Source: a virus (Duplodnaviria; Caudoviricetes). Taken from it: a stretch of 64,000 nt of DNA. A program made the position numbers and the translations under genes. The notes below the pieces were generated by a model. The model had not been told where the DNA came from, ran no database searches, and saw only the letters and a list, made by a program, of their open reading frames with translations. Each line of letters opens with the position of its first letter. The first letter of the stretch is position 1. The stretch is taken from positions 1,031 to 65,030 of IMG/VR virus record IMGVR_UViG_3300046642_000423; one strand, 5' to 3'. Positions 2,610 through 23,228 of the stretch are shown piece by piece.

Positions 2610-5600
2610 ATGCGAAGATTCCTACATCTATTGTGGTTGCTGCCACTGCTGCTATTCTCCGCAGCGCCTGCGCACGCGACCAACGAAGCCGCGCATGGCT
2701 GGTGCGAGGATGGCAATCAACAAGTCATCCTGTCCGGTCTGATGTCCACCACGCTCGCGCAGGAATCGTTCCCACAATGCACCATCTACGTCTATAACCA
2801 TGGTGGCGGGCTCGCAACGATCTACTCTGATGAGAACAACACTCCGCTTGCTAATCCATTCACCGCGAACACGAATGGCCAGTGGATCTTCTACGCAAAT
2901 GATGGGCGATATGACGTCAATATGTCTGGCGGGACTCCGATCGCATTCCCCGGCCCAGTAACGATATCCGATATTACTCTGGGAGGATCTGGAGGCGGGT
3001 CAGGCGTAGGCCGACGAGTCTGCATTATGCGTGCAGGTTCCGATGATGGATCTGCCCTTACTAACGCTCAGATTGCACCGCAGACCATTCAATGCGAAAT
3101 CACAGATGATGCGACAGTGATTGAGGTAGATGTGACCGCTGATGGCGGCACGCCCACAACGATCGCCTCGCGTATTCGTGGGGGAGCATCCGTTGACCTT
3201 GTATCCTCCACGCTTACGACTGGCGCAGTAGGAGCCCTGGCCTGTTCCAACGCAACAGGCAGTTTGGGCATTGATGGAACAACCACCTGCGCGATGACTC
3301 TCCAGAACACGACCCTCGCAGCAGGTGATTATCTCTACACGCGCACGGCGACCGCAGGTGGGGTTGCCAAAGTATTCACTGTTTCTGTTGTATTCACGCA
3401 GGCCGGCGGTGGTGGAGGTGGTGGAGGCACAGGACTGACCAGTATTGGCCTGACGATGCCATCCTGGCTCACCGTTGCGAATTCTCCATTAACCTCGAAT
3501 GGTACACTCGCCGTGACGCCGACAGCTGGCCAGTCTTCACACCTCGTCATTGGCACCTGCAATGCCGCTACGACCTTTGCACCGTGCTTACTTGTAGCGG
3601 CTGATCTGCCCAACACAGCCGTATCTCCAGGTTCCTACACGAATGCGAATATTACTGTGGATGCGCAAGGACGACTTACCGCTGCATCAAACGGCGCCAG
3701 TGGAGGTATAGGCACTCCCGGCATGCCAACTACAAGTGTCCAGTTCAACTGTGCAGGCGCGTTCTGTGGCGATGCTGCAATGATTTGGGATAACACAGCG
3801 AAGTCCTTGAATCTTTCAAATGGTTCTCTCGGTGCATCCGAAGCCACCTTAGATTTATCTGGGAGTGGTGCAGGGACTTCCTTTCAAGGATTCCCTGCAA
3901 TTTTAGCGGTGCGTGCTCCAGATGAGAATGGTCCTTGGGGGCAGGTATGGACGAATGAAGTATACAAAGCGTCTACTGGTGGAGCCGCGGGACAATTTTG
4001 GGAATTATTCATAAACGATGCTGGAGATACATTCTTTCAATGGGGTGGTGGCACCGGACCAGGAGTAAGCGATCAAGGTATTCAATTTTATCATAACGGC
4101 GAAGTAGAAACGGGTGGACCGCTTCAGATAGACGACCTTGTAAACGCAGCAAACGGTGCTTTTGGCATAGCGTTAGATCCTAATGGAATTGGAGCATTTA
4201 CGTTTTCTGAGGCTTTTGATTCAGTGCATGGCGTAACGCCAACTCTGGGCATTCCTTCTTATGCGACTGACCCAAACACTGCTGGATGGGGGGCAGGCCA
4301 AAAGGGGCGCGAATGGTTTAACTCCACTGGCAACGTCGTAAAATATTGGAACGGGTCATCGGTGCAGACACTCGGAACTGGCGCGAGCACGCCTTGCACC
4401 TCTACTGCGCTCTCCATCCAATATAACCTCGCTGGAGCCTTCGCCTGCACACCGATGACCTATACGGTCGGCTCAACCACGCTTGCGACTAATGCAATCA
4501 CGGTCGATGCGAGCTTAGCGACCTCGGTTAAGCTGCCTTATCTGTGGATCGTCAATTCTTCTGCTCCGTCTGCTATCTCGGGCAACTCGATCTGCTACGC
4601 GACGACAACGAATATCAACTGCTCGATCAACGGTGGTGGATTCAACGCGATCAATATCGGAGTTACTCCAGTTACTCTCGGTGGGACGGGCTTGGCGACG
4701 CTCACTGCGCATGCACTTATCGCTGGAAATGGAACCTCAGCCGTAACGGTACTCGGAACAGGAACCCTTAATGACTGTCTGCTGTCTGCTGGTGCTGGCG
4801 CTGACCCAGCATTCGGAGCTTGCCCAGGCAGCGGTACGATCACCTCGTTCAGTGCGGGCAATCTCTCACCATTATTCACCTCGAGTGTGGCGACCGCGAC
4901 CACGACTCCAGCGCTTACCTTCGCATTGACCAGCGCGGCAGGCGGTACGGTGTTCGGACGCTCAGCCGGGACCACCGGAGCTCCAGCCTACACCTCGACT
5001 CCCGTGCTGGGTATCCCGACCAGCGTAATTGGCACACTGGGATTCGCGGGGAACACTTCCGGCACGGCAACGATCACTCCGCAGGCAGCTGCTGGGACGC
5101 CGAACCTGGTCCTGCCAATCTTGTCCGGCACGTTCGCGGTCAGCGCGACCGCTCCAGTCACATTAAACACGACCACCGGCGACATCGGCTGCGCGACCTG
5201 CTTCCGCACAGATGCCAATGGGACCTCGGGCGCGTTCGTCTACACTTTCGCAGCCGCTACCTCCATCGTTCCTATGCGCGTAGCGGCCGGGGCCACCGTG
5301 GCAGCGAATGGACAAATGGCTTTCGATACGACCAACAATAATCTCCATTTCTATAACGGCAACGATCGAGTCGTGGCGGTATTCGACGGCACCGCGCAGG
5401 TGAATGGCGGCTGCTTGCAAGCTACTGTGGCCGCTTCCAAGGTGGAAGTGACCAATACCGGCGTGAATTGCAACGGCGCGGGCAGCGTGGCGTTCAGTGC
5501 TCTCACCAGTTCAACCAACACGACTGCAACGATGCACGTCGGCACGGGTGCGACACTTGATACATCCGGTTCGGGCGTATTGAATGCCAACGAAATCAGT

Positions 5601-6728
5601 GCGACCACAATCCCAGCAACCTCTACCGCCGATCAGGTTCTCCAGACGACTGCATCTGCGACTGGCGCATGGAAATCTGTTCCTCTTTGCACAGACACTG
5701 GCGGACAGCACTTGAACTATGACACCTCCACGCATACCTGGTCCTGCGGAACGTCCGGCACATCTGGTCCATCTGCGCTCTCCAGCATCACGGCGATGAC
5801 CACCAATGCAACCATCAACAATGGTGACAATCCTCTGCGTTGGAATTGGGATGGAACGACCTCTGGGCGGGTAGGATTCCTTGTCTCTGAGAACATCGCA
5901 TCGACCTCAGCCGGCACGCCAGTCTTATTTGCCGTCCGAGCCATCGCATCCTCAACCATGAATCCCTTTGAGGCGTCCTTCAATGGCTTGGGCGTGCGCA
6001 TGAATACTTCCGGTGTGTTGCAAGCAGTCAGCACAGGCGGCATCGACTGGCCAGCGTTGCTCAACTACCCTTCTGCTTGTGTCAACCAGTTCATCCGTGC
6101 GCTGTCCGACACGCCGACCTGCGCTACGGTTAGTCTGACCGCCGATGTGTCAGGCATTCTCCCGCAAGCAAACGGTGGAACGAACACTGCGAACGCGCCG
6201 ATCAAGCGTGCGTACTTCCAATTCGCAGGAAACAACGCGACCACGGTAGGCGCCGGCTGGGATCTCCCAGTGACCACTCCAATGGTCGCCACCTCCAAGA
6301 TTGACGGAACGAATGGTACCGTTCAGGGCACGCTCAACGCCGCCGATGGCCAGATCGCCTACGCAACCTGGATCATCCCAGACGACTTCACCTCATTTAA
6401 TTCGGCCAAGATTCGCTTTACTACGACCGATACCACGAACGGACACACGATCATCTTCAATATCGCGACAGCCTGTACCAACCCGAACGCTACTGTTACC
6501 GACACGCCGAATTATAACGTCGCCAACGCCTTCACCACCGTGACGATCGCTGGTGGGGCGGTGGCGAACGCGGCTTATTCGACCACAGCGGGCACAGTGA
6601 CCGCGACAGGCTGCGCGGCAGGCTATATACTGCACATGAAATTGACGCGCGCGACGGATACTGCAACGGATACAGCGGTTGCGCTCACCGGAGGACTCTT
6701 GTTGGCCTACAATGGATCATACCAGTGA
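2610..6728 (+). CDS. Large tail fibre/appendage protein with Sec signal peptide
   Basis: Signal peptide MRRFLHLLWLLPLLLFSAAPAHA. Followed by ATIYSDENNTPLANPFTANTNGQWIFYANDGRYDV, resembling tailspike N-terminal anchor domains. Also SPGSYTNANITVDAQGRLTAASNG and LGGTG fibre motifs; T/G/A/S-rich. Confidence 0.75.
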   Translation: MRRFLHLLWLLPLLLFSAAPAHATNEAAHGWCEDGNQQVILSGLMSTTLAQESFPQCTIYVYNHGGGLATIYSDENNTPLANPFTANTNGQWIFYANDGRYDVNMSGGTPIAFPGPVTISDITLGGSGGGSGVGRRVCIMRAGSDDGSALTNAQIAPQTIQCEITDDATVIEVDVTADGGTPTTIASRIRGGASVDLVSSTLTTGAVGALACSNATGSLGIDGTTTCAMTLQNTTLAAGDYLYTRTATAGGVAKVFTVSVVFTQAGGGGGGGGTGLTSIGLTMPSWLTVANSPLTSNGTLAVTPTAGQSSHLVIGTCNAATTFAPCLLVAADLPNTAVSPGSYTNANITVDAQGRLTAASNGASGGIGTPGMPTTSVQFNCAGAFCGDAAMIWDNTAKSLNLSNGSLGASEATLDLSGSGAGTSFQGFPAILAVRAPDENGPWGQVWTNEVYKASTGGAAGQFWELFINDAGDTFFQWGGGTGPGVSDQGIQFYHNGEVETGGPLQIDDLVNAANGAFGIALDPNGIGAFTFSEAFDSVHGVTPTLGIPSYATDPNTAGWGAGQKGREWFNSTGNVVKYWNGSSVQTLGTGASTPCTSTALSIQYNLAGAFACTPMTYTVGSTTLATNAITVDASLATSVKLPYLWIVNSSAPSAISGNSICYATTTNINCSINGGGFNAINIGVTPVTLGGTGLATLTAHALIAGNGTSAVTVLGTGTLNDCLLSAGAGADPAFGACPGSGTITSFSAGNLSPLFTSSVATATTTPALTFALTSAAGGTVFGRSAGTTGAPAYTSTPVLGIPTSVIGTLGFAGNTSGTATITPQAAAGTPNLVLPILSGTFAVSATAPVTLNTTTGDIGCATCFRTDANGTSGAFVYTFAAATSIVPMRVAAGATVAANGQMAFDTTNNNLHFYNGNDRVVAVFDGTAQVNGGCLQATVAASKVEVTNTGVNCNGAGSVAFSALTSSTNTTATMHVGTGATLDTSGSGVLNANEISATTIPATSTADQVLQTTASATGAWKSVPLCTDTGGQHLNYDTSTHTWSCGTSGTSGPSALSSITAMTTNATINNGDNPLRWNWDGTTSGRVGFLVSENIASTSAGTPVLFAVRAIASSTMNPFEASFNGLGVRMNTSGVLQAVSTGGIDWPALLNYPSACVNQFIRALSDTPTCATVSLTADVSGILPQANGGTNTANAPIKRAYFQFAGNNATTVGAGWDLPVTTPMVATSKIDGTNGTVQGTLNAADGQIAYATWIIPDDFTSFNSAKIRFTTTDTTNGHTIIFNIATACTNPNATVTDTPNYNVANAFTTVTIAGGAVANAAYSTTAGTVTATGCAAGYILHMKLTRATDTATDTAVALTGGLLLAYNGSYQ

Positions 6729-22704: not shown

Positions 22705-23228
22705 GACGCTCATTTGAGTTGGCAACTCTAGCTCTTATATTAGCTCTTATATATACCCTTCCAGTCTCCGCCCAGCATGCGGTGAATATCGGCTGGACAC
22801 TGGGAGTGCAGCCTAGCGGGATCACCACGACTGGACAGAAGGTGCGCCGAGATGGGGTCGTGCTGGCCACTGTAGCCGCTAACACCGCAGTGTACTCGGA
22901 TCCCAATGTGATTGCTGGCAGCACGTATGTGTATACCGTGGTGGCGGTCACAACGGCCGGGGATAGCATACCTAGCAATGCAGTCAGTGCGACGGTGCCG
23001 AGTGGAACGGTGGGACCGCCTGGGCCTCCAGGGCCACAGGGGCCAGCTGGGCCAACGGGTCCTACCGGCGCTACCGGAGCGACGGGTGCCACGGGAGCAC
23101 AAGGTCCGATCGGTCCGCAAGGTCCTATTGGCGCTACCGGGGCGACTGGTCCTCAAGGTCCGGCTGGAACGATGGTCTGCGTGAAGACTGACGCAACGCA
23201 TTGCAAGATTACGATAACGATCCAGTGA
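22701..23228 (+). CDS. Signal peptide + FN3-like domain + collagen repeats
   Basis: Hydrophobic leader ending [31 protein letters not shown]3 motif; (Gly-X-Y)n tract. Confidence 0.8.

Follow-up and report, generated by a model that had tools for sequence, protein, structure and literature searches.

In the IMG/VR virus record IMGVR_UViG_3300046642_000423 (Duplodnaviria; Caudoviricetes), four proteins encoded among the late genes begin with classic cleavable leaders of the Sec type and carry an even number of cysteines (Cys) in their mature parts, and the leaders of the three larger ones are kept in their homologues. Judged from sequence, these proteins are very probably exported, cleaved and locked by disulfides in the periplasm. 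The largest, P0001, is a fiber or spike protein with a predicted tailspike-type N-terminal domain, and a fuller reading, in which export and oxidative folding of the four are followed by docking of P0001 on an adaptor of the particle at lysis or after release, has in our judgment a somewhat better than even chance of being correct. The window referred to below is the whole stretch of 64,000 nucleotides (nt) that was analyzed, bases 1031-65030 of one 65,030-bp contig, and coordinates are those of the window unless stated otherwise. The four open reading frames (ORFs; lengths in amino acids, aa) are:

2610..6728, plus strand: P0001, a 1372-aa fiber/spike protein with a leader, a predicted N-terminal fold, fiber repeats and 13 sequential Cys pairs
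2610-2678, plus strand: the leader of P0001, 23 aa
2679-3014, plus strand: the tailspike-type N-terminal domain of P0001 (predicted fold)
6725..8287, plus strand: P0002, 520 aa, with a 19-aa leader followed by a predicted beta-helix, and 12 mature Cys in 6 sequential pairs
15469..17067, plus strand: P0003, 532 aa, with a 20-aa leader, a central immunoglobulin-like (Ig-like) He_PIG domain and 6 mature Cys
22701..23228, plus strand: P0004, 175 aa, with a 24-aa leader, a short beta-rich domain, a collagen-like G-x-y stretch and a C-terminal C-x7-C

Read directly, all four leaders have a positively charged n-region, a Leu/Ile-rich core of 8–14 residues and an A-x-A-type cleavage site. They end in ...APAHA before a mature T (P0001), ...SSAHA before T (P0002), ...LPVSA before S (P0003) and ...LPVSA before Q (P0004); the coordinates, translations and leader ends of the preliminary description, which had singled out these four ORFs, were all confirmed. 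Direct reading was combined with a purpose-built heuristic applied to 96 greedily called ORFs, of which it flagged seven: the four proteins, a membrane-anchored 136-aa ORF at 17092, and the ORFs at 25035 and 28673 described below. The start of P0001 is an ATG immediately after the upstream stop, and the starts of P0002 (GTG, 6725), P0003 (GTG, 15469) and P0004 (TTG, 22701) each overlap an upstream stop by 4 nt, with AAGGAG upstream of the last.

Leaders are also found at the N-termini of homologues, as assessed for the P0001, P0002 and P0003 families. The N-terminal domain of P0001 occurs in 17 of its 102 matches, and a full hydrophobic leader precedes it in 14 of the 17, the N-termini of the other three being too short to hold one. 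P0003-like proteins (500–580 aa) have a leader in 35 of 39 cases, followed by a conserved mature N-terminus, and an exhaustive search for the P0002 family gave 976 matches at E ≤ 1e-3, with a leader in 113 of the best 150 of the 976. In the P0001 and P0003 families the conserved domain begins directly after the predicted cut in all intact members. The sole cultured relatives found, both distant, are Tunturi 1 and 2 (PP887698, PP885685), podophages of the acidobacterium Tunturiibacter psychrotolerans according to excerpts of their description (PMC11924767). Tunturi 1 gp12, gp13, gp14 and gp17 have leaders at their annotated starts, gp14 being annotated as 'tail spike protein' and gp17 as 'virion structural protein'; the mature parts of its four large proteins with leaders contain 20, 10, 20 and 32 Cys. 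The leaders are therefore kept in all three families tested and in a cultured phage.

Were the starts mis-called, and the real proteins to begin downstream of the hydrophobic stretch, the leaders would be an artifact. Public gene calls for the same genome do begin P0001 at residue 8, within the leader, and P0003 at Met71, and three of the four starts used here are GTG or TTG. We nevertheless consider this explanation very improbable, since dozens of homologues also begin with leaders, each start touches or overlaps an upstream stop, and the conserved domain of P0001 starts 24 residues in, so that the next in-frame Met (residue 45) falls inside it. Because homologues have the full leader, the public starts of P0001 and P0003 are taken as wrong. 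Automatic gene callers thus clip or skip such leaders (two of four here), and the trait may be hidden by automatic annotation.

The type of export signal was also considered. Across the three families the median leader length is 19–22 residues and core hydrophobicity is high. The twin-arginine translocation (Tat) route was rejected: twin arginines occur in 2 of 14, 4 of 30 and 13 of 113 leaders of the three families, none with a Tat consensus. The twin arginines in the leaders of P0001, P0003 and P0004 are not conserved, which argues for Sec rather than Tat signals. A lipoprotein signal (signal peptidase II) was likewise set aside, as no lipobox was seen in the four leaders by direct reading; only the P0002 leader contains a Cys (F-L-L-C, with Leu at -1).

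A bias toward even Cys numbers is an accepted mark of exported, disulfide-bonded proteins, as stated in an excerpt of PMC2823432. The mature proteins contain 26 (P0001), 12 (P0002), 6 (P0003) and 2 (P0004) Cys, as counted before, with a 13th Cys of P0002 sitting in its leader, and the motifs quoted earlier (FNCAGAFC, CYATTTNINC, CVNQFIRALSDTPTC and CVKTDATHC) were all found in the translations. Among leader-bearing proteins whose cuts were read by hand, the mature count is even in 28 of 28 (three from the window, 19 Cys-rich matches, four from Tunturi 1 and two from the uncultured relative L001). P0004, which is outside this set, is even too, and so by script are P0065 and P0085, two proteins with unclear leaders that were left out of it. 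Leaderless fibers with the same repeats as P0001 have random parity (31 even, 33 odd, nine without Cys) and a median Cys content of 0.26%, vs. 1.51% for leader-bearing proteins.

The spacing of the cysteines is also ordered. In P0001 the gaps between the first and second Cys, the third and fourth, and so on are 25, 24, 15, 9, 5, 17, 9, 15, 3, 19, 19, 14 and 46 residues, and the intervening gaps (second to third, fourth to fifth, and so on), with a minimum of 49, are all longer than the longest of these; the chance of so perfect a separation is 1/C(25,13) = 1.9e-7. The separation is perfect also in P0002 (chance 1/462) and P0003 (1/10), and in all 28 proteins the median odd-numbered gap is shorter than the median even-numbered gap (8–47 vs. 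39–170). The preliminary description had instead pointed to the many close pairs, but a surplus of close gaps was rejected as evidence, because their number does not exceed the chance expectation (in P0001, 12 gaps of ≤30 residues with 11.1 expected; P = 0.43). What departs from chance is that short and long gaps strictly alternate, in combination with the even counts.

These features bear on whether the leaders serve for export at all. The proteins could instead fold and join the tail in the cytoplasm, their Cys becoming oxidized only after release into oxic soil, with the hydrophobic N-terminus in some other role such as transient membrane tethering. As far as is known, characterized tailed phages all assemble their fibers in the cytoplasm, and oxidation outside the cell could likewise select for even parity. 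We regard this explanation as improbable, given that all three regions of a cleavable signal, including the small residues at -3 and -1, are kept across three unrelated families, which would be difficult to account for if signal peptidase did not act on them. The position of the conserved domains, right after the predicted cut in all intact members, also speaks for cleavage, and a positively charged n-region followed by a hydrophobic core is established to engage Sec and the signal recognition particle by default.

The link to the particle is best seen in P0001, which is laid out as leader, N-terminal domain, 4-Cys domain, fiber repeats and C-terminal tip domain. P0001 matched no family in Pfam, PHROGs or NCBIfam, and PDB sequence searches gave nothing meaningful. 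The model of its N-terminal domain (residues 24–135) is all-beta, with a predicted local distance difference test score (pLDDT) of 87.7, and had 13 matches at E ≤ 1e-3 in BFVD; those that are named are phage pectate-lyase-superfamily or tail-spike proteins, so that the tailspike-anchor-like domain noticed earlier is borne out by a confident model. In a protein-language search (Atlas) the domain groups with viral clusters, the P22 Head_binding family scoring 0.90. Its leading PDB rows, at E-values weighed below, are podophage tail complexes (Pan3, Pam1 and, at rank 13, P22). The identities of the top chains (9vyg_o, 9vyg_m and 7eeq_A) could not be established, and in an excerpt of PMC13730344 the entry 7EEQ is named only for the Pam1 nozzle protein gp8. 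The 4-Cys domain adjoins the anchor domain (3015-3404; P0001 residues 136–265) and recurs at the C-terminus of the leader-bearing matches P0006, P0008 and P0010, and is thus a mobile module.

The N-terminal domain is present once in the genome and, among the four proteins, in P0001 only. It is also the only conserved part of P0001 in close relatives: in genomes with a 79–88% identical head protein (the nearer uncultured relatives L001, L002, L004 and L005 have head proteins in this range), conservation of P0001 is confined to this domain (94–97 residues, 57–68% identity) and the remainder is replaced. A conserved anchor with a replaced distal part is typical of receptor-binding proteins. The fiber repeats of P0001 are common to leaderless fibers, including a 'structural protein' of Synechococcus phage S-CBS2.

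A partner for this domain is suggested by gene order:

62985-63971, plus strand: candidate SU10-type head-to-tail adaptor, 328 aa, homologue of Tunturi 1 gp11, annotated as 'tail protein'

In Atlas, the 328-aa protein was assigned to SU10_adaptor (PF24175), with 0.98 for features and TM-scores of 0.73/0.75 for structure, a result that 'meets the bar for a name'; an hmmscan against Pfam gave it no family at E ≤ 0.01. In L001, L002, L004, L005 and L007 the fiber gene lies downstream of the adaptor-like gene and a variable set of enzyme genes, and it follows the adaptor-like gene in L001 and Tunturi 1; genes resembling sugar or methyl transferases stand between the two in this genome, L002, L004 and L005. 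In SU10, as described in excerpts of PMC9509320, the adaptor gene (gp11) is followed by the fiber gene (gp12), and the adaptor dodecamer bears six docks for long tail fibers. We propose that the 328-aa protein is the dock for the N-terminal domain of P0001. When the two were co-folded, the adaptor-like protein with three N-terminal domains, the score was 0.55, vs. 0.02 for the best of three controls; of 80 solved complexes 58 reached the mark used, as did two of 110 mismatched pairs, and passes at ≤0.60 comprised only seven of the 80 solved complexes and both passing mismatches. Contacts are at least 98% the same between runs, and the partner has a pLDDT of 84 or more. With the adaptor swapped and the three N-terminal domains kept, the score fell to 0.00, so that the signal does not come from self-association of the N-terminal domains alone. 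Together, these models lend weak support to docking of the domain on the adaptor.

A mechanism can be outlined from these observations. P0001–P0004 would be made along with the late genes as Sec preproteins, passed unfolded to the periplasm by the host translocon and cleaved by signal peptidase I at the A-x-A site, after which the oxidative machinery of the host would close sequential, local disulfides (13, 6, 3 and 1 pairs, respectively). P0001 would be the receptor-binding fiber: its mature N-terminus, a particle-binding domain of the tailspike type, would dock on the SU10-type adaptor of particles made in the cytoplasm. For docking to occur, the inner membrane would first have to be breached at the holin step, or the particles released, and the lysis region would then be the step that merges cytoplasm and periplasm. 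P0002–P0004 may be carried on P0001 or the tail, or may work unattached as exported enzymes or adhesins. In P22 and T4, assembly ends with the spontaneous addition of spikes or fibers, which can also be carried out in vitro. Late attachment is therefore physically plausible, and from the anchor fold, the synteny with the adaptor, the mosaic conservation and the co-folding result we infer that P0001 joins the particle at lysis. The preliminary description had proposed export for oxidative folding followed by attachment at or after lysis; the conserved leaders and the even Cys counts in 28 of 28 proteins bear out the first part, and the second stands as a hypothesis.

The other three proteins differ in how much can be said of them. 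P0002 has no family in Pfam, PHROGs or NCBIfam, but its model is a right-handed beta-helix directly after the leader (pLDDT 90.0; predicted TM-score, pTM, 0.91), with 27 PDB matches at E ≤ 1e-3 to GH136 glycosidases, PL6 and PL9 lyases and phage tailspike depolymerases. By its modeled fold, P0002 is a beta-helix of the carbohydrate-enzyme or depolymerase type; the TM-scores of these matches (0.24–0.52 by query length) are too low for an active site to be transferred. P0003 matched only He_PIG in Pfam, PHROGs and NCBIfam, yet its mature N-terminus is conserved and a full-length family of homologues exists; in cultured phages, tblastn found its Ig domain only, mostly in annotated major tail proteins of actinophages. 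P0003-like genes sit in runs of leader-bearing ORFs on otherwise unrelated viral contigs: six of nine full-length cases were flagged within such runs, and the other three comprise an uncalled ORF, an ORF whose start was called too far upstream and an ORF truncated at the end of its contig. On L012 and L016 these runs also include P0002-like genes: L012 has four consecutive leader-bearing ORFs with 12, 16, 8 and 18 mature Cys, and on L016 the run ends beside an endolysin gene. P0004 matched only collagen. An antisense 227-aa ORF (22740-23423, minus strand) overlaps P0004 and exceeds it in length; it is probably a side effect of the G-x-y collagen repeat on the opposite strand. Nothing ties P0002, P0003 or P0004 to the particle, so that action on the cell surface or matrix stands as an alternative for them, and each could be either on the particle or a free exported enzyme or adhesin.

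Extended to all four, this alternative holds that they are exported but are not virion proteins, being instead late periplasmic or released enzymes and adhesins, with some other protein as the true receptor-binding protein. Such proteins might aid release by cutting or binding host exopolysaccharide or envelope, remove receptors from debris, or prevent superinfection. The beta-helix of P0002, a carbohydrate-enzyme fold placed directly after the leader with no anchor, fits this, as does the P0002 family, whose 976 matches are mostly leader-bearing and include none in cultured phages. The phage also encodes an envelope-targeted PEP-CTERM-like protein and a leaderless collagen-like ORF, and bacteria have exported tailspike-like enzymes of their own, such as WceF (PMC7949094, in excerpt). 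For P0001, by contrast, the N-terminal fold is that of a tailspike N-terminal module; this domain is the sole part conserved in close relatives and is encoded near the adaptor gene, as in SU10, and the co-fold with the adaptor adds weakly to this. In the 30.7 kb of Tunturi 1 that was read, moreover, the large spike-like proteins are all leader-bearing and there is no obvious leaderless spike. We therefore consider a wholly non-virion role for the four unlikely, although clearly less so than a failure of export.

Several further observations count against export and docking as set out here. The leader calls come from a home-made heuristic rather than from SignalP. With cuts placed by script only, parity is less regular than by hand: 22 even and seven odd among P0001 matches, 85 even and 28 odd among P0002-like proteins, and 25 even, nine odd and one without Cys among P0003-like proteins. 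Three of the seven odd P0001 matches are mis-cuts in which a leader Cys was retained, and of 30 true P0003 orthologues 27 are even when the table is read by hand, a count in which three mis-cut or missed leaders were corrected and from which four lipoprotein-type Ig proteins and five proteins that are truncated or lack the family's mature N-terminus were left out. Eight low-Cys, leader-bearing P0001 matches are evenly split (four even, four odd); they share only the generic fiber repeat with P0001. Homologues are not independent, so that binomial figures overstate significance and the evidence is at most as strong as the P values indicate. Against the PDB, the N-terminal domain of P0001 has no match at E ≤ 1e-3 (best E = 0.044), and the identities of the matching chains were not established. 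In this genome the adaptor gene and P0001 are four enzyme genes apart, and the calibration of the tool indicates that a co-fold pass of this kind is more likely false than true where the pairing was not already probable. P0002 lacks an anchor domain, its best fold matches are bacterial secreted enzymes, and tblastn against 50,697 cultured-phage records found no relative of it; it may never join the particle. The leaderless collagen-like ORF of 480 aa could be another fiber. Finally, the main text of the Tunturi paper (PMC11924767) reports no proteomics and is silent on the leaders; the terms 'mass spectrometry' and 'signal peptide' do not occur in it.

The genomic setting is that of a tailed phage, as it encodes a terminase, a portal and a major head protein:

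contig 1-127 and 64904-65030 (window 63874-64000): terminal overlap, exact over 127 bp
47294-49519, plus strand: large terminase, a head/packaging gene
56429-58531, plus strand: portal, a head/packaging gene
60402-61661, plus strand: major head protein, a head/packaging gene

Because 127 bp are repeated exactly at both ends of the contig, it is taken as a closed circular assembly and the complete genome, of ~64.9 kb, of a soil phage; the window covers nearly the whole of it. The late module runs from ~46 kb across the genome ends and through 1–26 kb, and the leader-bearing ORFs lie within it. The label 'tail module' given earlier to their span is loose, since the span also holds a homing endonuclease ORF and a GNAT-like ORF (listed below). 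The head protein is 31% identical to those of Tunturi 1 and 2 over 89% of its length, and the terminase, portal, adaptor-like, 453-aa and 1347-aa proteins are 31–40% identical to their Tunturi homologues. From these sequences the phage is probably short-tailed, and distant kinship to the Tunturiibacter phages makes an acidobacterial host probable. A scan with the P0001-family alignment over one genome per prokaryote species gave 55 pattern matches, none of them confirmed; that route yielded no prophage relatives and no direct host assignment. A scan of viral contigs with the 1347-aa protein gave two pattern matches, none confirmed, and blastn of window 2610-8287 against cultured phages gave no match.

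Other genes of the late region and its surroundings are:

45-2609, plus strand: transferase-like ORFs directly upstream of the fiber gene
8435-8962, plus strand: HNH/LAGLIDADG-type homing endonuclease ORF, between P0002 and the 453-aa late gene
9305..14709, plus strand: two leaderless late proteins of 453 and 1347 aa, homologues of Tunturi 1 gp30 and gp31
14687..15472, plus strand: two small, leaderless, Cys-free late proteins of 103 and 148 aa, conserved in L005
17092: membrane-anchored 136-aa ORF, positive by the leader heuristic
17506-17916: GNAT-like ORF, within the span of the leader-bearing ORFs
18000..22704, plus strand: four leaderless late ORFs of 188, 566, 481 and 331 aa, the first three with 0 Cys
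24381..26074, plus strand: lysis region, with membrane ORFs, a lipoprotein and an endolysin
24381 and 25430, plus strand: small membrane ORFs of the lysis region
25035-25430, plus strand: lipoprotein, 131 aa, 6 Cys, with an L-T-G-C lipobox
25604-26074, plus strand: leaderless M15/VanY endolysin of the lysis region
28673-29200, minus strand: PEP-CTERM-like protein, 175 aa, Cys-free, with a Sec-type leader ending in ...APAAHA before D
50250-51692, plus strand: leaderless collagen-like protein, 480 aa, 3 Cys, between terminase and portal
52159-53442, plus strand: 427-aa ORF with no family, between terminase and portal

The stretch directly upstream of the fiber gene includes two ORFs resembling S-adenosylmethionine-dependent methyltransferases (365-976 and 973-1665, plus strand) and a 327-aa ORF with a weak match to lipopolysaccharide heptosyltransferase II (GT9), which is 58–61% identical and in the same place in L004 and L005. 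A two-domain GT2-like ORF (53848-55758, plus strand) lies between terminase and portal. These transferase-like genes may glycosylate the fiber or alter host polysaccharide. A relative of the homing endonuclease is found at a different place in L001. Tunturi 1 gp30 is annotated as a structural protein and gp31 as a virion structural protein. The genes for the 103- and 148-aa proteins are directly upstream of P0003. The lipoprotein at 25035 is far longer than a usual outer-membrane spanin. The C-terminus of the protein at 28673 has P-E-P, a hydrophobic helix and basic residues, with a weak match to NF038126 (E = 0.0056); as a PEP-CTERM protein it would be a phage-borne substrate of a host exosortase and would hint at the identity of the host. 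The interval from terminase to portal, occupied in Tunturi 1 by a single small gene, here holds the collagen-like and 427-aa ORFs (50250-51692 and 52159-53442), which may encode another fiber or a head decoration.

In textbook tailed-phage morphogenesis, assembly takes place wholly in the reducing cytoplasm. A second assembly compartment would be a real departure from this: infectivity would depend on the Sec and disulfide machinery of the host, and the final assembly step would be tied to lysis, which would become the last step of morphogenesis. It would also explain how soil phages gain disulfide-stabilized appendages, and receptor-binding proteins or depolymerases of this kind would probably misfold when expressed in the cytoplasm. 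Whether two-compartment assembly, with heads and tails made in the cytoplasm and Sec-exported, disulfide-stapled fibers docking at the holin breach, extends to a broad set of soil phages including the Tunturiibacter podophages is more doubtful, and we put its chances at slightly below even. Our literature search, which mostly did not extend to subscription journals and so leaves absence from print unproven, found no described tail fiber or spike with a leader; the nearest cases were a leader-bearing esterase in a lysis block (PMC10975493, in excerpt) and the bacterial enzyme WceF. Fibers and spikes themselves are well known, and what appears to be new, on the evidence of these translations, is their combination with export signals and obligate Cys pairs.

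Among known systems, the fibers and tailspikes of podoviruses (the P22 gp9 type, tail-complex chains of the cyanopodophages Pan3 and Pam1, and those of Pantoea phages Vid5 and AAS21, whose proteins are labeled 'tail spike' or 'EPS-depolymerase') share with P0001 an N-terminal module fold of ~110 residues and the combination of a conserved N-terminus with variable distal parts. P0001 differs from them by the Sec leader ahead of the anchor domain and by its 13 sequential Cys pairs; to our knowledge, the known podovirus fibers and tailspikes are leaderless and fold in the cytoplasm. Export through the host translocon to beyond the inner membrane is itself familiar among phage late proteins, namely endolysins of the signal-peptide and signal-anchor-release (SAR) types and filamentous-phage coat proteins. 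The former serve lysis and the latter belong to phages assembled in the membrane, unlike the proteins described here, which would be appendages of a cytoplasmic particle. The fiber of SU10 presumably has no leader. In that phage (Kuravirus) the order of adaptor and then fiber is as here, according to excerpts of PMC9509320, and the 328-aa protein resembles SU10_adaptor, but here four sugar or methyl transferase-like genes intervene between adaptor and fiber. WceF of Pantoea stewartii is a bacterial glycanase with a trimeric beta-helix tailspike fold and an export signal; the enzyme acts on exopolysaccharide beyond the cytoplasm (PMC7949094, in excerpt). It is found among the PDB rows for the P0001 N-terminal domain (6tgf, rank 11, E = 0.24) and, by the same excerpts, is exported by Tat, whereas the leaders described here have no Tat motif. 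Tunturi 1 and 2 have a fiber with the N-terminal domain after the 'tail protein' and large leader-bearing proteins, although the order of modules differs, with lysis genes between the spikes and the gp30/gp31 homologues. As these two phages are in culture and share the trait, the question of periplasmic fiber assembly is directly testable in them.

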